Part shown: one piece after another, positions 6,612 through 36,890 of the stretch
Layout: each line of letters opens with the position of its first letter
Numbering within the stretch: the first letter of the stretch is position 1
Source of the DNA: a virus
Taxonomy: Duplodnaviria; Heunggongvirae; Uroviricota; Caudoviricetes
Length of the DNA stretch: 64,000 nucleotides
Reading direction: 5' to 3' (one strand)
IMG/VR virus record: IMGVR_UViG_2974644367_000001
Location: 10,237-74,236 of that record
The notes under the pieces: model-generated
What the model was told of the DNA's origin: nothing
Databases searched by the model: none
Seen by the model: only the letters and a program-made list of their open reading frames with translations
Made by a program: the position numbers and the translations under genes

Positions 6612-7096
6612 TGGTAAAACGTGTTATCGGTGAGGGGCGAAACGTCCTAATGAAAGCCGTCAAAAACATTGCAAAGTCAACTGTAAAGGTTGGCTTTTTT
6701 GCTGAACAAGGTAAGCACTACTCAGGTTTCTCTTATCCTGCGTTAATGTATCTTCATGAAGTAAACGGTATTCCAGCAGCCAACGGTAAAGTCTACCGCA
6801 GGGCGTTTGAAACCGCTATGCAGATTGACAGAAAACTTTTGATAGCGCAAGCTCAGAAGAATCTAAAACGTATGCTCTCAACAGGGCAGACAAACCCCGA
6901 CCTCGTACTTTCCCAATTCGGACAAGGCACTATCAAGTCCCTTAAAAAGGTCTTTGGTAATCCAAGCCTGTTACCACCGAACACACCTTCAACTATTAAA
7001 TCGAAGGGTGGAAGAAATACGCCTCTGGTTGATACATCTGACCTCGTTGATAAACTGGCGTACAAGACTTCTAATCGTGGAGGATTGAGGAAATGA
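6611..7096 (+). CDS. Head-tail joining protein (putative)
   Basis: Overlapping TAATG start in the structural operon. Confidence 0.35.
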   Translation: MVKRVIGEGRNVLMKAVKNIAKSTVKVGFFAEQGKHYSGFSYPALMYLHEVNGIPAANGKVYRRAFETAMQIDRKLLIAQAQKNLKRMLSTGQTNPDLVLSQFGQGTIKSLKKVFGNPSLLPPNTPSTIKSKGGRNTPLVDTSDLVDKLAYKTSNRGGLRK

Positions 7097-9979: not shown

Positions 9980-10390
9980 ATGAAAACCGTTAAAAAGTCT
10001 ATCGCTGACCGCGAAGTCAGTATTACCTTACTTGGCCTGAAAGATGGTGTCAACATCTCTCTGAAGATTGCGCGTGTTGCTGCACCTGCTTATGGTCAGC
10101 TTATTGAAGCGTTCAGTAAGATTAAAGAAGGTAATAAAGACATCCCGATTAAAGATATTGTCTTGAACTGTCTGGACGCTATGGACGAGATGGATGTTAA
10201 CTCCGTTCTGGAAAAACTGTTCGATGGTATGCTGGTTGATGACCGACCAATGACCCTTGACCAAGCGTTTGCTGGTAACTATGGATTCATGATGGATTGC
10301 GTAATCTTCGCTATTGAAAAGAACTTCTCAAGTTTTTTCGAAGCAAGCATTTTCAAAAACCTGTTTTCAGAGTCGGAGACGGAGCAGTAA
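9980..10390 (+). CDS. Tail assembly chaperone (G-like), short product. An alternative start at 9938 is possible.
   Basis: An acidic protein of about 136 aa directly upstream of the tape measure. The ATG at 9980 has an AAGGAAA ribosome-binding site. Confidence 0.55.
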   Translation: MKTVKKSIADREVSITLLGLKDGVNISLKIARVAAPAYGQLIEAFSKIKEGNKDIPIKDIVLNCLDAMDEMDVNSVLEKLFDGMLVDDRPMTLDQAFAGNYGFMMDCVIFAIEKNFSSFFEASIFKNLFSESETEQ

Positions 10391-29587: not shown

Positions 29588-29612
29588 AAATAAAAGGACT
29601 CCGAAGAGTCCA
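29588..29612 (-). terminator. Intrinsic terminator (UUCG hairpin family), minus strand
   Basis: On the + strand this reads AAAAGGACTCCGAAGAGTCC, and on the minus strand it is GGACTC-TTCG-GAGTCC-TTTT. Confidence 0.65.
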
Positions 29613-29618
29613 GTAAGA

Positions 29619-29828
29619 TTAGAAGAAGAATGCTCGGAACAGCTTGTACAGGAATAGAACCATGTAACCTGCTGCGAGACCTTCAACGATACCGACAAGG
29701 ATAATAACCGTGTCTGATACGAAACGCAAGGGTCTTTCCGTTGCAAATTTCAGAATTTTAAAGCTATCGACAATGAGCCATAAAATACCGATAGCGATTG
29801 TTAGGCAAACCAGAATAGCACTAAGCAT
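29619..29828 (-). CDS. Small membrane protein (2 TM)
   Basis: A hydrophobic 69 aa ORF. Confidence 0.4.
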   Translation of the reverse strand: MLSAILVCLTIAIGILWLIVDSFKILKFATERPLRFVSDTVIILVGIVEGLAAGYMVLFLYKLFRAFFF

Positions 29829-31089
29829 TTGATTCCTTTAAAATATTCAAGTAGCGGTCAAGAATCTGACCAACTTTATAAGTGTTTGACTTGTGAATTA
29901 GCTGCTTTTTAGTCTGAATATTATCAGTCTCTTTGATAGCCTCAACAACCTCTGGAGAGAGCTTTCTTGTTTGACTTACAATTTCAGCAAGCATGTTCAT
30001 CTGAAGGTACAAGACTTTCTGTAGTCTGGCGTTGGCATCAGAAATACATGTCATACAAAGAGCATTCACGATAGTTGGGTTATTGAACTCTTTATGTTCT
30101 TCTAACCATACCGCAAGTCTATTAGCGCGACGTACAAACATACCATGAACACGATGATGTTGTTCCGCACAGAACTTAGCAGCACTTCTGACATTCTTTG
30201 GAGCACCAATTCTGTCCAAGAAAGACTCCAAGTCCCGAATGTCAGACTCATGTCCGTGAAGATTTCCACGCTCCTTGAGAGTAATCCTCTTACCCATGTC
30301 GTGACATAAGATACACAGGGACTGCATGACCCGATTACTATTATCCCATCCATATTTAGGTAGCTCCACTTCTTCATAATGTTGTAATGCAAGAACGGTA
30401 TGGTTCAGAACGTCACCTTCAGGGTGATACTTCTTAGGCTGTCTTACGCCACGCATACCGGAGATTTCAGCGAACAAGTTGAACTTACCACAAAGACTTA
30501 CAAACTTCCAGAAGTTATCAGAAGATGCAGCCTTTTCAATCTCTTTCCAGATACGCTCCTTCGGAAGATGAGCAAGACAACCAGCCTCAACCATCTCACG
30601 GAAAAGAGCCTTAGTCTCTGGCTCAATGAACAGATTGTGACGTGCTGCAAAGCGTAGCCCTCTAAGGATTCGCAAAGGGTCTTCTTTGAAACGCTCTGCA
30701 TCAACCACACGAAGGATTCTGTTTGCCAAGTCATAGCGACTCATCGGGTGAGCACAAATCAACTCATCAGTGTTTGCACCACCCGCTCTTACAGGAGAAG
30801 CACAGGCATTGATAGTGAAGTCACGGCGAAGCAAATCTTCATCCAGTGTGACACCATTTGTATCAACTTCGAAGTCATTGTAACCTTCACCTGTAGAGCT
30901 TTCACGACGAGCCATAGCAATCTCTGTACCGTCATCGGTGATGAATACAGGGAAAGACTTACCAACCTTTTTCAGACCCAATGCAAGAAGCTGTTCTTCA
31001 GTAGCGTTCACAACCACGAAGTCATGGTCTGATGATTGCTTACCGAAAGCTGCATCCCTGATTGAACCACCTACTAAAAAGAAATCCAT
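29821..31089 (-). CDS. CCA-adding tRNA nucleotidyltransferase / poly(A) polymerase family with a C-terminal HD domain (start at MDFFLVGG; track ORF extends to 31173)
   Basis: The GGSIRD and DHDF head motifs and the HD motif LCHDMGK. A GAGG ribosome-binding site lies 7 nt before the ATG at 31089. Confidence 0.7.
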   Translation of the reverse strand: MDFFLVGGSIRDAAFGKQSSDHDFVVVNATEEQLLALGLKKVGKSFPVFITDDGTEIAMARRESSTGEGYNDFEVDTNGVTLDEDLLRRDFTINACASPVRAGGANTDELICAHPMSRYDLANRILRVVDAERFKEDPLRILRGLRFAARHNLFIEPETKALFREMVEAGCLAHLPKERIWKEIEKAASSDNFWKFVSLCGKFNLFAEISGMRGVRQPKKYHPEGDVLNHTVLALQHYEEVELPKYGWDNSNRVMQSLCILCHDMGKRITLKERGNLHGHESDIRDLESFLDRIGAPKNVRSAAKFCAEQHHRVHGMFVRRANRLAVWLEEHKEFNNPTIVNALCMTCISDANARLQKVLYLQMNMLAEIVSQTRKLSPEVVEAIKETDNIQTKKQLIHKSNTYKVGQILDRYLNILKESNA

Positions 31090-31096
31090 ATCAACC

Positions 31097-31447
31097 TCAC
31101 TCAAAAAGGATGCGCATGTCGTCTTTAGAGATTGCGAAGGTCGGGTAGATAGTCCCGTCAACTTCAATCTCAATCTCGATGAAGGTCAGACCGTGACGCT
31201 CACGGAACAGTGTGTTAGCGATTTCATCACGGGCTTCTTGTGATTTCTTACCAGAGGCCAACTTGAAGTTGGAGTAAGCTGAACCAACCTGCATGTAGCC
31301 ATTTTTACGAGTTGCCTTGTAGACAGGATGACCCTTACCTTCAAAGAACTTCAATAGGTTCTCACCCATCTTCTTTTCATTTGCAGTAGGTTTCCCGTAG
31401 AAACACATCGCATAGTTGTTATGGAAAATCACGTTTTCTTTCTTCAT
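31097..31447 (-). CDS. Hypothetical protein
   Basis: A 116 aa protein and the first gene after the minus-strand promoter. Confidence 0.45.
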   Translation of the reverse strand: MKKENVIFHNNYAMCFYGKPTANEKKMGENLLKFFEGKGHPVYKATRKNGYMQVGSAYSNFKLASGKKSQEARDEIANTLFRERHGLTFIEIEIEVDGTIYPTFAISKDDMRILFE

Positions 31448-31479
31448 CTTAAAGCCCTCTGTGTTGTTAATGTGTGTGT

Positions 31480-31508
31480 AATTTAACAGTAATGGATTCT
31501 AAGGTCAA
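31480..31508 (-). promoter_or_regulatory. Sigma70-like promoter, minus strand (TTGACC-N17-TAAATT)
   Basis: Read on the reverse complement; it lies 25 nt upstream of the start at 31447. Confidence 0.4.
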
Positions 31509-31521
31509 GAAAAATATGCAA

Positions 31522-31546
31522 TAAAAAAGGACTCCGAAGAGTCCCT
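31522..31546 (-). terminator. Intrinsic terminator (UUCG hairpin family), minus strand
   Basis: AAAAAAGGACTCCGAAGAGTCCC on the + strand. Confidence 0.65.
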
Positions 31547-31553
31547 CTGTAAG

Positions 31554-32429
31554 TTACTGATTTTGTTGCTTAATCAGGGCTGACATGTCAATAATCTGAC
31601 CTTGAGATTGACCCTGTACCAGTGGCAGATTACCAGACCACTTCTCAACCAGACGAAGTTGAATAACTGTTGGGTTCTGACGGAGAGCTTCACCCTGAAT
31701 ACGGATGGCTTCTGCTTCACCTTGAGCTTTCAGGATTGCAGCGTCTTTCTCACCCTGAGCCGCATTCTTACGAGCATCAGCAGTTTGTACCGCTGTCAGT
31801 GCAGCCTGTTTCTGGCGCTCTGTATGTTGCTGTTCAGAAATCTTCTGGTTCATTGATTCAACAACCGCTTTAGGTGGCAGAGGGCTACTTGTAAAGTAGA
31901 TGTTCTCAATGATGATGCCGTAACCTGCAACCTGATTTGCAACATCGGCTTTGACATCAATCAGAAGCTGAGTCTTACCGGAGCCATACAGTTCTTCAAC
32001 ACTCAACTTAGAAGCATGACGGATAAATGCGTCACGAATCATGTTGTGCAGGTAGTTGTCTGTAATCTCATCAATACCCTGACGGTATTTCTGGAACAGG
32101 TCAACAGCCTTGTTAGGGTCTACATGGTAAGCCAGACCAACGTTAACTGTCCACTCATCACCACCCTCTGAAGGTTGGATTTTGAAAGCCTGAGAGCCAG
32201 ACCATTCTTTGTTCTGAGTAGTTGTTGGGAACAGATACAGGTCATGACCCCAAGCAGTGAATTTCCAGCCAAGACCGACACGCTGGATAGCGTCTTTATC
32301 GGTATCTGAACCAGTCGTCTTCACGTACACACCGACATTGCCGGGAGTGACCTTGTTACAAGCGGTTAGTGACGTTGCACCGATAACCATTGCAGCAGCG
32401 ATTACGATATTCTTGATTAGCTTCTTCAT
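31554..32429 (-). CDS. SPFH/band-7 (prohibitin/flotillin/HflKC-like) lipoprotein
   Basis: A signal peptide with the lipobox SLTAC. The C-terminus carries an Ala/Glu-rich AEAIRIQGEA band-7 coiled-coil signature. Confidence 0.65.
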   Translation of the reverse strand: MKKLIKNIVIAAAMVIGATSLTACNKVTPGNVGVYVKTTGSDTDKDAIQRVGLGWKFTAWGHDLYLFPTTTQNKEWSGSQAFKIQPSEGGDEWTVNVGLAYHVDPNKAVDLFQKYRQGIDEITDNYLHNMIRDAFIRHASKLSVEELYGSGKTQLLIDVKADVANQVAGYGIIIENIYFTSSPLPPKAVVESMNQKISEQQHTERQKQAALTAVQTADARKNAAQGEKDAAILKAQGEAEAIRIQGEALRQNPTVIQLRLVEKWSGNLPLVQGQSQGQIIDMSALIKQQNQ

Positions 32430-32431
32430 TT

Positions 32432-32674
32432 TTACAGTTTCCTTTTAGAGGCGATTTCGCCAAGTCGTACCATGTTCTCTTCCATCTTTTCAATGGCAGG
32501 TTCAATGGCAACCATTAAGTTATGCAACTCTACGAGAGTCTTCAAACCATCTGACACTTTACCAGTGTTGATGTCCTGTATCGCGTCGAGTAGGTGTATC
32601 TTAATGTTGCTGGTCAGGGATGTCAACGCTTTTTCTTTCATTTCTTGACTCATTTTTATAATACTCAATATCAA
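32432..32674 (-). CDS. Hypothetical small protein (start uncertain; overlaps the next ORF)
   Basis: ORF only. Confidence 0.3.
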   Translation of the reverse strand: MILSIIKMSQEMKEKALTSLTSNIKIHLLDAIQDINTGKVSDGLKTLVELHNLMVAIEPAIEKMEENMVRLGEIASKRKL

Positions 32675-32864
32675 TCAGTTCATGAATAACACCTTTGATG
32701 GTTCCCTTCAAGAAAACCTTCTCAGATGCTGGCAAAGTTGCGTTATCAATCAACGAGTTAAGACGTGCATAGAGTTTCTTTCTACGATTCTTAATCGTTG
32801 ATTCACTCGCATTCCTTTGTGTTGCTGCATGGTTTCTTCCACGATGAGTCATGACTTTTTCCAC
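32601..32864 (-). CDS. Hypothetical small basic protein
   Basis: ORF only. It overlaps the 32432 ORF out of frame. Confidence 0.3.
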   Translation of the reverse strand: MEKVMTHRGRNHAATQRNASESTIKNRRKKLYARLNSLIDNATLPASEKVFLKGTIKGVIHELIDIEYYKNESRNERKSVDIPDQQH

Positions 32865-33055
32865 ACGTCTTTTGTGACTTTGTACATGTTATAAGAAAAC
32901 AGCCCTAGTAAGGCAATCAGGAAAAGCCCAACAAAGAACTCTGCTGTATAAACACGTGACATGAAGTCTGGTAAGTCAGTCACAACCAGAGTCCACAGCC
33001 AAAGGATAAAGAGCCAGATAGCCCCGATAATAAACTTAAAGATAGTCTTCATCAT
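32849..33055 (-). CDS. Small membrane protein (2 TM)
   Basis: Hydrophobic profile. Confidence 0.4.
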   Translation of the reverse strand: MMKTIFKFIIGAIWLFILWLWTLVVTDLPDFMSRVYTAEFFVGLFLIALLGLFSYNMYKVTKDVWKKS

Positions 33056-33380
33056 TGTCAGATTCCTCTAAAAGGTGTAGTGGGTGATAACCTCGAATAT
33101 CATCACCAATGTTGTGATTCATCTCTGCGATACTTTTCTCAGAGAATCCATCAAGAATATTGAAGTCCTGACGACGAAGCACTTTGGATTTACCTGCCTC
33201 AAAATAGACACGTTTACCCATCATACGACGAAACAGTTCTTCATTGATTATAAAGATTGAGTCATGACCGAAGCAGTCCCATGAAACGACAATATCACGT
33301 GCCATTTCAACGTCACTCGGTACATCATCAGGGTCAATCACACTGTTCATCATTTTGCCATTAGTTGTGCTCTGAAACAA
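33036..33380 (-). CDS. Hypothetical acidic protein
   Basis: ORF in the operon. Confidence 0.4.
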   Translation of the reverse strand: MFQSTTNGKMMNSVIDPDDVPSDVEMARDIVVSWDCFGHDSIFIINEELFRRMMGKRVYFEAGKSKVLRRQDFNILDGFSEKSIAEMNHNIGDDIRGYHPLHLLEESDNDEDYL

Positions 33381-33658
33381 CGGTTCTCATCAGCGAAGTT
33401 CCAGAATCGGTCTTTACAGTTAACCTTACCATGAGTCTTAGCATTTGAGCAAAAGATTTTATGGTAAGTCCTTTTCACAATGAGTTTACCACAGAAAGGG
33501 CAAGAGATGGTAGCGCCAGTTTCAGCCGTCTTAGCACGGTTATAGCGCACCTTCATCTTGTTTCTGGTTCGTTCGGTATCTTCCCAACGTTCTTGCCTTT
33601 CTTCCTCAGCAATCTCATCAGCATAATCCCAAACTTCATCATCCATCCCGTAACCCAT
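33350..33658 (-). CDS. Zinc-ribbon protein
   Basis: CPFCG ... CSNAKTHGKVNC cysteine pairs. Confidence 0.45.
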   Translation of the reverse strand: MGYGMDDEVWDYADEIAEEERQERWEDTERTRNKMKVRYNRAKTAETGATISCPFCGKLIVKRTYHKIFCSNAKTHGKVNCKDRFWNFADENRCFRAQLMAK

Positions 33659-33659
33659 A

Positions 33660-33914
33660 TCACAGACCCCTTTTCATCTCAGCTAAAGCCATTCGACCCT
33701 GTGGAGTCTTTAATAGTTCGGCTTCATCTGTTTCATCAAACTCTTGGGATTTCATGAAGGAATCATACTCAGAATCAGAGATTAGAATCCAGCGATAATC
33801 ATCACTCTTCCAAGTGTATTCTTCCAGTTCTGACCGGAAGCACCATGAGTCATCAGGCCAGACCACAATATCATCTGGACTCAAGGGTTGAAACATAGCA
33901 TTTTTCCGTTCCAT
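33660..33914 (-). CDS. Hypothetical protein
   Basis: ORF in the operon. Confidence 0.4.
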   Translation of the reverse strand: MERKNAMFQPLSPDDIVVWPDDSWCFRSELEEYTWKSDDYRWILISDSEYDSFMKSQEFDETDEAELLKTPQGRMALAEMKRGL

Positions 33915-34147
33915 TGAACGACCTCCATAAATTGCATTTCATCCATAGCCAGAGCGATAGTACCCTCAAGAGTCTCAACACTCGTTCTGACCATATCTAC
34001 ACCACCATGCTTCTCAAGACAAATCAACTTGAAAGATGGTTTTGCACAGAGAATTGCTGCCATACGGATTGCCATACGACCAGCATTTTTATTGTGACGG
34101 ATAAAACCTTCACGGTCTTTTACCCTAACTTCAAAAATCTTTTCCAT
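33881..34147 (-). CDS. Hypothetical protein (first gene of the leftward small-gene operon)
   Basis: GAGG ribosome-binding site. A promoter lies just upstream. Confidence 0.4.
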   Translation of the reverse strand: MEKIFEVRVKDREGFIRHNKNAGRMAIRMAAILCAKPSFKLICLEKHGGVDMVRTSVETLEGTIALAMDEMQFMEVVQWNGKMLCFNP

Positions 34148-34167
34148 CGGCTACCTCTTTGTGTGTG

Positions 34168-34196
34168 AAGATACACATCCTTGTGCATCATGTCAA
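34168..34196 (-). promoter_or_regulatory. Sigma70-like promoter, minus strand (TTGACA-N17-TATCTT)
   Basis: Read on the reverse complement; it lies 13 nt upstream of the start at 34147. Confidence 0.45.
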
Positions 34197-34199
34197 CTG

Positions 34200-36890
34200 T
34201 TAGTGAACATCCAACCAGTTTTTACCAACTTTACCAGTACCTGTTACCAGTGTGTCCGGTAAGAGTTTCAGAGCTTTAGATGCTGTACCGTACATTGCAT
34301 CAATAACCTCTTTAGCCTCATGAATCATCTCGTTAGGAACTTCCCAAGAGTTTTCATCGTGGTATGCGCAAAGCAGTCTTGCACCGATAGCTGGCTTACG
34401 ACCATTCAGTTTCATCAAGCCCTTGTCAAGCATCTGACGACAAGCCCAATTCACTGCCTCATTTTGAACCTGAGCTTCGGAACCCATCAAAAGATAGTTC
34501 AGAATCTTATGAGGGCTGTTACACCACAGATAAGCACCTGCAACACTGATAAAGCCACCTTTACAGATTGGGTGAGTTTTACCAAACACCTGACCAAGAG
34601 CTTTCTTAGTAGCCTTGAACTCATCTTCAAGACGGTCAAGCAGAGCCTTAATCTTAGGGAGGCGTGTGAAGTATGTCTGTTTGATTCGAGCACCTTCATC
34701 TGTAGTCTTCACTTTGATGGTCTTAGCAAACTTCTCATCACCACCACCGAACAGCAGACAGTAGATACCGTTCTTCGCTTTCTTACGACCGTTGCTAATC
34801 TTATGAATCAGGTCTTCATCCTGCGTTGCACGTGCAGTGATAATATCTGACTCTTCATTCAGGGTAAACTGAATTGAGTTAAACGAGTGAGCATCAGTAC
34901 CAGTGTAGACAACGTACAAGTCGTTCTCTTCATCATAGTTCAGGTATTTGTCAATCGTCGGGTCAAGGTACTTGTCCAGTTTAGAACAGTAGTAACGACC
35001 ATCTTCTGTACGCTTGAACTCCACATCCTCTTTACCTTTCGTTACAGCGTAGGTGAAGTCAGGGTCTCCCATGAAGTTACAAAGCAGCACAAGCTGTGCA
35101 GAGTTCATATCTACAGAGATAACGCTTGTACCCTCTTCACAGCCCCACACTTCACGCATCTGAGCGCCATACACCGCAGCAGATGAAGGTGTGTTTACGA
35201 TGCCCCACTGAGTCATACGACCAGTAGATGTCCCGAAGACTGTAGCACCTGCACTCATACGCCCATCAGCACGAACCATGTTCAGCCAACCCTTCTCATC
35301 ATGTTTAGGGTTTTCGAGTGTACGGCGACGATGCTGTAACGTGTTGTACTTCGCAATGCTCTGTCCAAGTGAACCGTTGATGGTGTCGTATGAACTTTCA
35401 GTCAGCTTAGGAGAAGTGCGTAAACGTGCATTATCCCATTCTGGCATAGAGCGGCGAAGTGTGTAAGTGTACATCAGATACTTGATACCGTCATGCTCAA
35501 TCACATCAAGACCAAATTCATCTTTCCACTTACGGGTGAACTTGTTCAGTCGGATAAGACGACCAGATTGTTTATCACGACAAATCTTAGCATCTTTACC
35601 GTCCTTATCTTTCTTGTAGTTGTAGTCATCAGGAACCCAACCACACTTGTTCAGAAGATAACCCTTCACTACGTCATGTTGTGACATGGTTGACTTCTCA
35701 AAGCTGATTCGTGTATGAGGTGCAGCAATCACACCATCGTAACGGTTAGACTCAAGCCCGAAGTGGTTCACAGTATGCGTGTCATACTCAAGACCTTCTG
35801 ACTCACGCTTCAGAGCTTTCCACTGACAATCTTTTGGTTTAGCTGTGCCGTTCAACTCTTTACAAGCATCACGTGCTTCTTTCAGACTGCCAAAGATGGT
35901 CTTCACAACTTCACCTGTTACAACGTTCTCAACAGAGTAAGTCTTGATAACCTTCTTATTGGTTGAACTGAAGGTAGGTTTAGCCAACGGTTTAATCTCA
36001 ACACGTTTAGTCTCACCCTTACGCTTCATCATCCGATACTTCGTTGGCGGGTACTGTGTAATCTTACGAACAGATTCATCACCTAACTCATCGGCATACG
36101 CTGACCAACCTTTAGCAAAGTCCTCATAAGTGACTTTACCTTTGTTCTTGATAGTTGGTGGTAGGTTTGGCTCGATGGTTTCAGCCAACTCTGTAATAGT
36201 TACATCAAGTTCATCAGCATACTTTCGCATCAGTTCAACATTTGCTTTCCAGCCGTTGATACCCTGTTGACCCATCCAGAAAGATGTTTGTTTGGCACGT
36301 TCATAGGTTTCTGTAGTGTCTACACCACACTCCTTGAGCATACGCTTTTCTTTATCAAGCATACGTTTGGTACGGGCGTTGATTCGAATATCTTCAACGA
36401 CACGTGTAAGCATCCGTCCATCCCAAGTTGTCCAATCCTCAATCTCAGGTTTATGAACACCACAACGAGCACCCCATGCAGCCAGACCATGAGCACCCTT
36501 ATAACCACGTGGAGTCGGACGGTCATGCCACTGAACACGCGACTGTACAAGGGAGTCTTGCCATTTGGCATCCCAAGGTTTTGCAGTGTTAATGTTGAAC
36601 AGGTCAGGTGCAATATGGTTGAACACCCACCAGTCATATTGACAGAGGTTATGAATAACAACTTCTGCACAACGGTTCATCATGAACTCAATACCCTCAC
36701 GAAGACCACCTTTGATGTACTTAGTGTACGGGTGTCCAATCGGTACAGGTTTATCAGTGAATACAAAGATTTGGTCATCAGTCTTAGACTTGTACTCACA
36801 GAACGCCATAACGTGAACGTCATCAAACTCCATTAACAGGCCGTTTGTTTCCGAGTCACCCACAACGTGTAACAATTCTTGCTCAGGCAT
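34200..36890 (-). CDS. DNA polymerase, family A (T7 gp5-like, with 3'-5' exonuclease; start at MPEQELL; track ORF extends to 36941)
   Basis: Exo motif DSETNGL, motif B RKKAKNGIYCLLFGG and motif C YHDE. AGGAG ribosome-binding site. Confidence 0.9.
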   Translation of the reverse strand: MPEQELLHVVGDSETNGLLMEFDDVHVMAFCEYKSKTDDQIFVFTDKPVPIGHPYTKYIKGGLREGIEFMMNRCAEVVIHNLCQYDWWVFNHIAPDLFNINTAKPWDAKWQDSLVQSRVQWHDRPTPRGYKGAHGLAAWGARCGVHKPEIEDWTTWDGRMLTRVVEDIRINARTKRMLDKEKRMLKECGVDTTETYERAKQTSFWMGQQGINGWKANVELMRKYADELDVTITELAETIEPNLPPTIKNKGKVTYEDFAKGWSAYADELGDESVRKITQYPPTKYRMMKRKGETKRVEIKPLAKPTFSSTNKKVIKTYSVENVVTGEVVKTIFGSLKEARDACKELNGTAKPKDCQWKALKRESEGLEYDTHTVNHFGLESNRYDGVIAAPHTRISFEKSTMSQHDVVKGYLLNKCGWVPDDYNYKKDKDGKDAKICRDKQSGRLIRLNKFTRKWKDEFGLDVIEHDGIKYLMYTYTLRRSMPEWDNARLRTSPKLTESSYDTINGSLGQSIAKYNTLQHRRRTLENPKHDEKGWLNMVRADGRMSAGATVFGTSTGRMTQWGIVNTPSSAAVYGAQMREVWGCEEGTSVISVDMNSAQLVLLCNFMGDPDFTYAVTKGKEDVEFKRTEDGRYYCSKLDKYLDPTIDKYLNYDEENDLYVVYTGTDAHSFNSIQFTLNEESDIITARATQDEDLIHKISNGRKKAKNGIYCLLFGGGDEKFAKTIKVKTTDEGARIKQTYFTRLPKIKALLDRLEDEFKATKKALGQVFGKTHPICKGGFISVAGAYLWCNSPHKILNYLLMGSEAQVQNEAVNWACRQMLDKGLMKLNGRKPAIGARLLCAYHDENSWEVPNEMIHEAKEVIDAMYGTASKALKLLPDTLVTGTGKVGKNWLDVH

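Follow-up and report, generated by a model that had tools for sequence, protein, structure and literature searches.

A prohibitin-like SPFH lipoprotein of Erwinia phage vB_EamM-M7 and its probable two-helix membrane partner

The stretch of DNA analysed here (the window) comprises 64,000 nucleotides (nt) of the IMG/VR virus record IMGVR_UViG_2974644367_000001, positions 10,237 to 74,236, so that a window coordinate equals the record coordinate minus 10236. The region 31300..34400 of the window is 100% identical to Erwinia phage vB_EamM-M7 (HQ728263 / NC_041978; Ounavirinae, Kolesnikvirus), and 89–99.7% identical to about 35 sister phages. We are concerned with gp051, a gene at 31554..32429 on the minus strand, as are all the window features for which coordinates are given below. 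Its product of 291 residues is predicted to be an exported, lipobox-bearing SPFH/prohibitin-like protein, and the gene ends a leftward transcription unit of small genes (gp058 to gp051). The conserved unit to which gp051 belongs consists of the SPFH protein and one small protein with two transmembrane (TM) helices, and in this phage the probable partner is gp054 (32849..33055). We propose, with a probability of about one half, that gp051 and gp054 together build a scaffold of two components on the periplasmic side of the inner membrane, which would condition the host membrane in early and mid infection.

The N-terminus of gp051 (MKKLIKNIVIAAAMVIGATSLTA|C24) carries three lysines in its n-region, no charge in its h-region and L-T-A-C as its lipobox. 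This arrangement, MKKLIK-NIVIAAAMVIGATS-LTA-C24, agrees with the lipoprotein pattern used here, in which a positively charged n-region and an h-region precede [LVI][ASTVI][GAS]C and the Cys falls at position 15–35. The signal peptide (residues 1–23) and the lipobox Cys24 (codon 32360..32358) occupy 32358..32429, and most of the homologues keep the lipobox Cys. The hydrophobic signal sequence with its lipobox forms the N-terminal membrane anchor, replacing the TM helix. The SPFH domain follows almost at once, at residues 26–210 (31800..32354), where the Pfam Band_7 model (PF01145) matches with 74.5 bits against a cutoff of 23.6 (1.4e-20). PHROGs assigns the protein to phrog_200, 'lipoprotein' (7e-78), and a sequence search of the PDB matches prohibitin-2, prohibitin and QmcA.

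A structural model of gp051 was generated with AlphaFold2 from 47 homologues and has a mean pLDDT of 84. It consists of a β-rich SPFH domain, a helix of 65 residues (187–251), a second helix (253–263) and then a poorly predicted tail. These Ala/Glu-rich coiled-coil helices are encoded at 31641..31871, and the alignment with prohibitin-2 includes this region. They are followed by a C-terminal family motif, EKW-x-G-x-LP (31623..31646), in which W264, G266 and P269 are invariant among the 47 sequences. In a Foldseek comparison the whole length of the model can be aligned with prohibitin, HflK/C, erlin, flotillin, stomatin and QmcA (1e-13 to 1e-8). The architecture is thus that of the cage subunits of HflK/C, QmcA, prohibitin and erlin, with SPFH1/2, a long coiled coil and a C-terminal part, and in the model helices 187–263 would correspond to the cage-wall and cap region of the solved SPFH assemblies. 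The first-pass annotation of this DNA, made from the sequence without database searches, had described gp051 as a secreted lipoprotein with an LTAC lipobox, an SPFH domain and an Ala/Glu-rich coiled coil, and the profile search and the model bear out that description.

The evidence for a partner comes from distant phages. Immediately upstream of the SPFH gene, and overlapping its start, these encode a protein of 65–78 residues with two TM helices and a basic tail. Examples are found in Stenotrophomonas phage Pokken (where the gene is unannotated), Ochrobactrum phage ORM_20, Vibrio phage CKB-S1 and a P1-like Escherichia phage. When 80 IMG/VR loci were fetched and their SPFH proteins clustered at 80% identity, 27 clusters were obtained, and in approximately 24 of these an open reading frame (ORF) of 50–100 residues with two TM helices ends 40–55 nt before the lipobox Cys codon. 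The helices are separated by a recognisable motif, P-x-[LF]-[IVLFM]-S-[AS]-x-[DS]-[TY], followed by a conserved Gly. PHROGs holds the family as phrog_1130, 'membrane protein', in the category 'moron, auxiliary metabolic gene and host takeover'. The family has no Pfam or NCBIfam match, and no NfeD domain was found in 24 partner proteins or in the fused proteins described below. The two genes are not always contiguous: in Klebsiella phage KB57 a single gene for a small soluble protein lies between the partner (E 2e-16) and the SPFH gene. Elsewhere among phages, the cassette adjoins DNA polymerase, thymidylate synthase or tRNAs.

The location in the P1-like Escherichia phage vB_EcoM-Ro157c2YLVW (L007) deserves separate mention. 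There the cassette lies in the dmt-tRNA-ban variable region, where P1 itself (L088) has plp, upl and tciABC on the other strand. Since the cassette shares a strand with ban, it is presumably under C1-controlled early expression. Plp and Upl of P1 were considered as a form of the cassette and rejected, plp encoding a lipoprotein of 125 residues on the other strand, and the 56–72 kb region of P1, which includes dmt, the tRNAs and ban, having no SPFH match.

In some lineages the partner and the SPFH protein are joined in one polypeptide. This is seen in 17 of the 150 best cluster representatives (~11%), for example P0061, P0074, P0076, P0080, P0087, P0088, P0093, P0095, P0102 and P0106, and at loci L130, L136 and L141. 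In 16 of the 17 fusions the partner is N-terminal and is followed by a basic linker and a third hydrophobic segment, and in every one of these (16/16) the lipobox is retained. Four of the fusions have no Met between the partner and SPFH parts. The remaining fusion, P0085, has its partner domain at the C-terminus instead. The sequences suggest that the fusions are polytopic precursors, which signal peptidase II would cleave to give two membrane proteins. From this topology it would follow that the N-terminus and tail of the partner are cytoplasmic, and that its conserved loop and the SPFH part are periplasmic. A dedicated two-TM partner, and fusions that keep the lipobox, appear to be undescribed in the curated libraries and the literature searched.

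The cassette is also found in bacteria. A hidden Markov model (HMM) built from the viral partners was applied to 80 bacterial loci, and in 55 of them it matches just before the SPFH gene; among these are nearly all Dyella species, Chitinophaga, Dependentiae and one actinobacterium. In Dyella and other Rhodanobacteraceae (L096–L134) the flanks of the cassette are conserved across species, and consist of a BlaR1-type M56 peptidase, two hemerythrin-domain proteins and a ribonucleotide reductase. Because of these conserved flanking genes, the Dyella cassette is to be regarded as a cellular gene pair, beyond prophage cargo. Some Dyella genomes have a second copy of the cassette elsewhere, for example L138.

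For M7 itself, the candidate partner is gp054, a protein of 68 residues with two TM helices, the loop LPDFMSRVYT between them and a basic C-terminal tail. A profile comparison of gp054 with the partner family (hhalign) gives a probability of 82% and an E-value of 1e-5, with LPDFMS aligned to LPxLiS. The gene order in a relative is informative. L179 is a metagenomic Ounavirinae-like contig whose SPFH protein is 83% identical to gp051. It has, in order, a gp055 homologue (32% identity, E 1e-12), an adjoining gp054 homologue (39% identity, E 5e-11), a spacer of 67 nt and the SPFH gene; gp052 and gp053 are absent between the gp054 homologue and the SPFH gene. It is most likely that gp053 and gp052 are a lineage-specific insertion in M7, and we regard gp054 as the probable cognate partner of gp051. 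It is worth adding that in L179 the spacer immediately preceding the SPFH gene contains a promoter-like site, TTGACA-N16-TATTAT.

The first-pass annotation had considered SPFH proteins to be rare in phages, and the layout of the operon to suggest a host-membrane takeover or superinfection-exclusion module; the wider distribution speaks against the rarity and against a module of eight genes. A tblastn search with gp051 finds SPFH homologues in 767 of 50,697 phage records, the hosts of which belong to more than 50 genera (among them Staphylococcus, Pseudomonas, Klebsiella, Bacillus and Caulobacter); haloarchaeal viruses are also represented. When 1.84 billion cluster representatives were searched exhaustively with phmmer, 709 clusters matched at E<=1e-10 and 112 at E<=1e-30. 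The neighbours of gp051 are distributed quite differently. The gp050 family occurs in 299 records, mostly Felixounavirus; the gp056 zinc-ribbon family occurs in 314 phage records, chiefly of T4-like phages, and its distribution bears no relation to that of SPFH; and gp054 is found in 36 records only, of Kolesnikvirus type. Because the distributions differ in this way, the eight genes gp058–gp051 are not one coherent module. In favour of a module, all eight run in one direction and are closely packed, with one promoter-like site before them and one terminator behind. Nevertheless, the L179 locus keeps gp055, gp054 and SPFH while lacking gp052, gp053, gp056, gp057 and gp058, and homing-endonuclease insertions interrupt the block in Coenus and Prophecy, so that a single eight-gene 'takeover' module is highly improbable. 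An accessory status of gp051 itself is indicated by Felixounavirus EC6, in which the corresponding 18-kb region, from the polymerase to the gp050 homologue, has no SPFH match and only small genes and a ligase. We regard gp051 as an accessory phage gene, encoding a prohibitin-like SPFH scaffold protein.

Several features of the family point to the periplasmic face of the cytoplasmic membrane as the site of gp051. In 72 of 90 distinct family N-termini the Cys stands five residues before the G of GxVGV (C-x-K-V-x-x-G-x-V-G-V), and the gp051 model has a strand at 23–27. The first β-strand of the SPFH domain is therefore within a few residues of the Cys, and there is no tether. Once their linker has been deleted, outer-membrane lipoproteins are diverted to the inner membrane (El Rayes et al., bioRxiv 10.1101/2021.01.05.425367). 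Among the 90 N-termini, 13 carry at +2 the Asp that classically signals retention in the inner membrane. A canonical lipobox is missing from some members of the family, and in several homologues the N-terminal hydrophobic segment contains no Cys; these would need to be anchored by an uncleaved TM segment. Phages of Gram-positive bacteria and archaeal viruses, the hosts of which lack an outer membrane, also have homologues. The inner-membrane site is suggested by these observations together with the integral nature of the partner.

On the basis of these observations we propose the following. The genes gp058–gp051 would be transcribed alongside the genes for replication and nucleotide metabolism, in a unit that runs from a promoter-like site of host type to an intrinsic terminator. 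Once exported by Sec and lipidated, gp051 would remain on the periplasmic face of the inner membrane, where gp051 and gp054 would assemble in a ratio of about 1:1 into a ring or cage fencing a patch of membrane, by analogy with the solved SPFH cages. The TM hairpins of the partner would be a detachable bilayer-spanning fence, a role that TM-anchored SPFH proteins fill themselves. The fusions imply a 1:1 stoichiometry, and the partner would therefore be a subunit rather than a client. In the last and most speculative step, the scaffold would condition or stabilise the host inner membrane in early and mid infection; the possible benefits are a membrane kept intact and energised, or membrane proteins shielded from FtsH-type quality control. 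The core lytic programme would not depend on the scaffold. We favour a general conditioning of the membrane because the cassette is a conserved cellular gene pair, and because in phages it sits among early or middle replication genes. The conserved Dyella chromosomal locus counts against a role confined to phage infection.

A number of points weigh against this proposal. gp054 is the top match of the partner HMM among the 651 stop-to-stop ORFs of the window, but the match is weak (E 0.023; 9.6 bits), and gp054 lies two genes upstream of gp051 rather than adjacent to it. Its counterpart in L179 is undetected by the partner profile, for which reason gp054 may be an analogue of phrog_1130 rather than a divergent homologue. 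In the region as a whole, 12 promoter-like sites were found against 13.4 expected from shuffled sequence; given this lack of excess, the candidate promoter of the unit is called from its position, consensus and conservation. The oligomer, localisation and phenotype of gp051 and gp054 are predictions from sequence, and the benefit to the phage is a speculative analogy with HflK/C and flotillins. Genome papers call the role of phage SPFH genes unknown (PMC13239085, PMC7150955), and in the literature searched we found no functional test of any phage SPFH protein, only annotation remarks and guesses. Finally, the +2 residue is Asn in gp051 and Ser in 49 of the 90 family members, neither of which is a Lol-avoidance signal in Enterobacterales; by the E. 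coli Lol rule this predicts sorting to the outer membrane. In addition, a Pasteurella multocida prophage protein, PM0222, which is likened to gp051 by its HflK/C-like label, was reported in outer-membrane vesicles and signals via Toll-like receptors 1/2 (PMC9872710). These last two points would favour a Lol-sorted outer-membrane or surface lipoprotein that acts on a receptor, vesicle content or host interaction independently of gp054. Against such a lipoprotein stand the missing tether, the members with +2 Asp or without a lipobox, the hosts without an outer membrane and the partner, which is an integral membrane hairpin; moreover, in the fusions the SPFH part begins in the inner membrane. We consider the outer-membrane site quite improbable.

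Three other functions have to be weighed against the conditioning scaffold. The envelope lipoprotein, with or without gp054, might block DNA entry or tape-measure insertion by incoming phages. There are precedents for such superinfection exclusion in the lipoproteins Llp of T5 and Ltp of TP-J34, and in the small inner-membrane protein Imm of T4. The placement of the gene suggests early or middle expression, gp051 is predicted to face the periplasm and to have a small inner-membrane partner, and an accessory gene of patchy distribution is typical of conflict genes. In phage phiSH19 the SPFH gene adjoins an annotated superinfection-exclusion gene, and the PHROGs category of the partner includes host takeover. 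However, no similarity to a known exclusion protein was found in Pfam, PHROGs or PADLOC, and PADLOC-DB gives no match for any of the eight operon proteins. To our knowledge, the known exclusion lipoproteins are small and none is an SPFH scaffold, which also counts against this function. The cassette occurs at the conserved, non-prophage-looking Dyella locus and in several bacterial phyla, and the homologues span viruses of Gram-negative and Gram-positive bacteria and of archaea, which differ in their routes of entry. Exclusion is thus conceivable for gp051, though unlikely. It reappears as one of two possible purposes in a broader and somewhat less likely reading, in which the SPFH lipoprotein and the two-TM protein constitute an undescribed two-component SPFH system. 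In some lineages this would be made as a single three-TM precursor with the lipobox kept, from which signal peptidase II would produce the fence and the lipidated cage subunits. Many phage families would have captured the system to wall off patches of inner membrane, possibly in order to block incoming phage DNA or to resist membrane-targeting abortive-infection effectors.

The two remaining functions are tied to particular host or phage machinery. gp051 might mimic HflK/C and enclose or bind the host FtsH on its periplasmic side, altering the turnover of phage or host membrane proteins. Its model aligns over the full length with HflK and HflC in FtsH complexes (7vhq, 7wi3, 9cz2), its predicted periplasmic orientation is theirs, there is a weak NCBIfam match to HflK, and prohibitins partner with m-AAA proteases. 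That match, however, reaches 22.7 bits against a cutoff of 159.4, gp051 is a single gene with no HflK/HflC pair, HflK/C have no equivalent of the dedicated two-TM partner, and the homologues occur in archaeal viruses and diverse hosts. A hijack of FtsH is accordingly doubtful. For a role in the timing of lysis, the two-TM, basic-tailed partner would be a holin- or pinholin-like protein, and the SPFH cage would corral either this partner or the true holin until the correct time. The size and topology of the partner do resemble a class II holin, and in Staphylococcus phage K a small membrane gene of holin-like type precedes the SPFH gene mbpS, which lies beside lysK and tgl. In M7, by contrast, the holin (gp004) and endolysin (gp007) genes are approximately 40 kb from gp051 in another transcription unit; in most phages the cassette lies among replication genes; the cellular copies are at conserved chromosomal loci; and the fusions imply fixed 1:1 subunits, unlike a cage and its client. 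These facts make a lysis role very unlikely.

The transcription unit that ends with gp051 would begin at a sigma-70-type promoter-like site, TTGACA-N17-TATCTT, at 34168..34196. It scores 10/12 and directly follows the stop codon of the DNA polymerase gene. Its hexamers are unchanged in phiEa21-4 and in an IMG/VR relative (~90% identical overall), while the flanking bases differ. The genes, in order of transcription, are gp058 (33881..34147; 88 residues, phrog_26009), gp057 (33660..33914; 84 residues, acidic, phrog_28040), gp056 (33350..33658; 102 residues, zinc-ribbon-like), gp055 (33036..33305; 89 residues from the RefSeq start, acidic, phrog_5848), gp054, gp053 (32601..32852; 83 residues, with a basic N-terminus, phrog_5180), gp052 (32432..32641; 69 residues from the RefSeq start, helical and soluble, phrog_27922) and gp051, gp053 and gp052 lying between gp054 and gp051. 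The overlap of 34 nt between gp058 and gp057 (33881..33914) is unusually long, compared with 1–20 nt elsewhere in the operon, and the start of gp057 may for this reason be mis-assigned. The promoter-like site, the seven small genes on the same strand (as in RefSeq) and the zinc ribbon had all been picked out in the first-pass annotation, and are found as described. It had also listed two small membrane proteins. gp054 has clear TM segments and is one of them, whereas gp058 is not convincingly a membrane protein, its maximum 19-residue Kyte–Doolittle hydropathy of 1.43 being below the threshold.

gp056 has the pattern CPxC...FC...NCKD, and its four Cys do not vary among distant homologues, which agrees with a zinc ribbon. 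It has weak, sub-threshold NCBIfam matches to the zinc ribbons of YacG and AccD. The Cys4 ribbon family spans T4-like, KVP40-like and Felixounavirus phages and weakly resembles the gyrase inhibitor YacG, and several sister records mislabel gp056 as 'accD acetyl-CoA carboxylase beta subunit'. Large-database searches with gp054 and gp056 return near-identical proteins only.

A second promoter-like site, TTGACA-N17-TAAGAT (10/12), is found at 32598..32626, within the gp053/gp052 overlap and approximately 170 nt upstream of gp051. It may serve the SPFH gene as an internal promoter or, the region having no excess of such sites, be a chance match. The unit ends at an intrinsic terminator at 31523..31544 (GGACTC-TTCG-GAGTCC followed by TTTTTT; folding free energy −15.1, z −3.7). 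This terminator is conserved in relatives, and its equivalent in phiEa21-4 is annotated as a terminator. The terminator scanner overlooked it, probably by extending the stem with G–U pairs that consume the T-run, and folding of the sequence confirmed it. The same hairpin, GGACTCTTCGGAGTCC, ends two successive leftward units, namely gp058–gp051 and gp050–gp049 (the latter at 29596..29611), and a third copy is present in the relative L008, at 6821..6840. Directly downstream of the gp051 terminator is a further promoter-like site with an extended −10 TG, TTGACC-N17-TAAATT (31480..31508), which is kept with small changes in phiEa21-4 and would drive gp050 and gp049. gp049 (29821..31089), in this adjoining transcription unit, is a CCA-adding tRNA nucleotidyltransferase with a PolyA_pol head domain and an RNA-binding domain (phrog_2244).

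The small-gene block including gp051 is contained in a leftward cluster of replication and nucleotide-metabolism genes that runs from DNA polymerase to thymidylate synthase, and it has the appearance of an ordinary stretch of small early or middle genes. In the sister phages Coenus, Ea_Tu10 and Prophecy, insertions with HNH endonuclease annotations break the match to the 3.1-kb region into two or three parts, and the block is thus an insertion site for homing endonucleases. The GC content, overall and at third codon positions (GC3), gives no sign of recent acquisition. RefSeq labels the gene 'lipoprotein', and sister records have 'band 7 protein', 'SPFH domain-containing protein' or 'HflK family protein', while others are wrong ('transposase', 'tape-measure protein', 'serine protease'). 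Since public annotation already records both the gene and its SPFH nature, the original observation is not new. In M7, gp051 is an ordinary, already annotated gene and does not indicate a special takeover operon.

The wider interest of gp051 lies in its family. SPFH cages such as HflK/C, prohibitin, flotillin, erlin and QmcA are the subject of intense structural study, yet their roles in prokaryotes are mostly unclear, and the family of gp051 is present in approximately 1.5% of sequenced phage genomes. A dedicated two-helix partner that is not NfeD defines a unit that can be cloned, deleted and imaged, and so turns the question of phage SPFH proteins into a two-gene experiment.

It remains to compare the pair with known systems. 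The phage exclusion lipoproteins Llp of T5, Cor, and Ltp of TP-J34 are, like gp051, lipobox-bearing envelope proteins encoded by accessory phage genes. They differ in being small and single-domain, and in acting on a receptor or tape measure rather than as oligomeric scaffolds, and no relation of sequence or fold to gp051 was found using Pfam, PHROGs and Foldseek. A two-component spanin, in which a small outer-membrane lipoprotein pairs with a coiled-coil inner-membrane protein of one TM helix within the lysis cassette, was also considered, and rejected on the basis of the length of the lipoprotein (291 residues), the two TM helices of a partner that has no periplasmic domain, and the distance of approximately 40 kb to the holin and endolysin genes. 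A further phage protein for comparison is MbpS of the Kayviruses (Staphylococcus phage K ORF28), a homologue with ~28% identity, which is likewise an SPFH membrane protein encoded after a small membrane-protein gene. Unlike gp051, it has a TM anchor and lies beside lysis genes, and its neighbour MbpV has one TM helix and does not match the partner profile.

The SPFH–NfeD operons (QmcA–YbbJ, 8z5g; FloT–YuaF; PH1511–PH1510) provide a parallel to the cassette as a whole, in that two genes encode an SPFH protein and a membrane partner, the partner being expected within the enclosed membrane patch. gp051 also matches QmcA structurally. The cassette differs in that its partner lacks the OB-fold NfeD domain, is encoded upstream and is sometimes fused N-terminally, and in that the SPFH protein is predicted to be periplasmic and lipid-anchored. 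Membership of this group was rejected, there being no NfeD match in the operon proteins, the 24 partners or the fused proteins.

HflK and HflC of the E. coli FtsH complex share with gp051 the periplasm-facing SPFH cage subunit and the full-length structural similarity noted above. The identification of gp051 as HflK or HflC was nevertheless rejected, because of the low score of the HflK model (TIGR01933) and the absence of a paired gene: no HflC-like paralogue is present, gp051 being the only protein with a Band_7 domain among the eleven scanned (gp049 to gp058, 29821..34147).

The best matches of gp051, in both sequence and structure, are the prohibitins PHB1/PHB2 and the prokaryotic p-prohibitins (SPFH4; Hinderhofer et al., 2009, PMC2636767). 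With 8rrh_B the E-values are 1.6e-5 (phmmer) and 1.9e-13 (Foldseek), at an identity of ~17%. Prohibitins have the same order of membrane anchor, SPFH domain, Ala/Glu coiled coil and C-terminal motif, and lie, as gp051 is predicted to, on the non-cytoplasmic side of the membrane. They differ from gp051 in having a TM helix where it has a lipid anchor, and in being a heterodimer pair where gp051 is a single gene with a dedicated two-TM partner.

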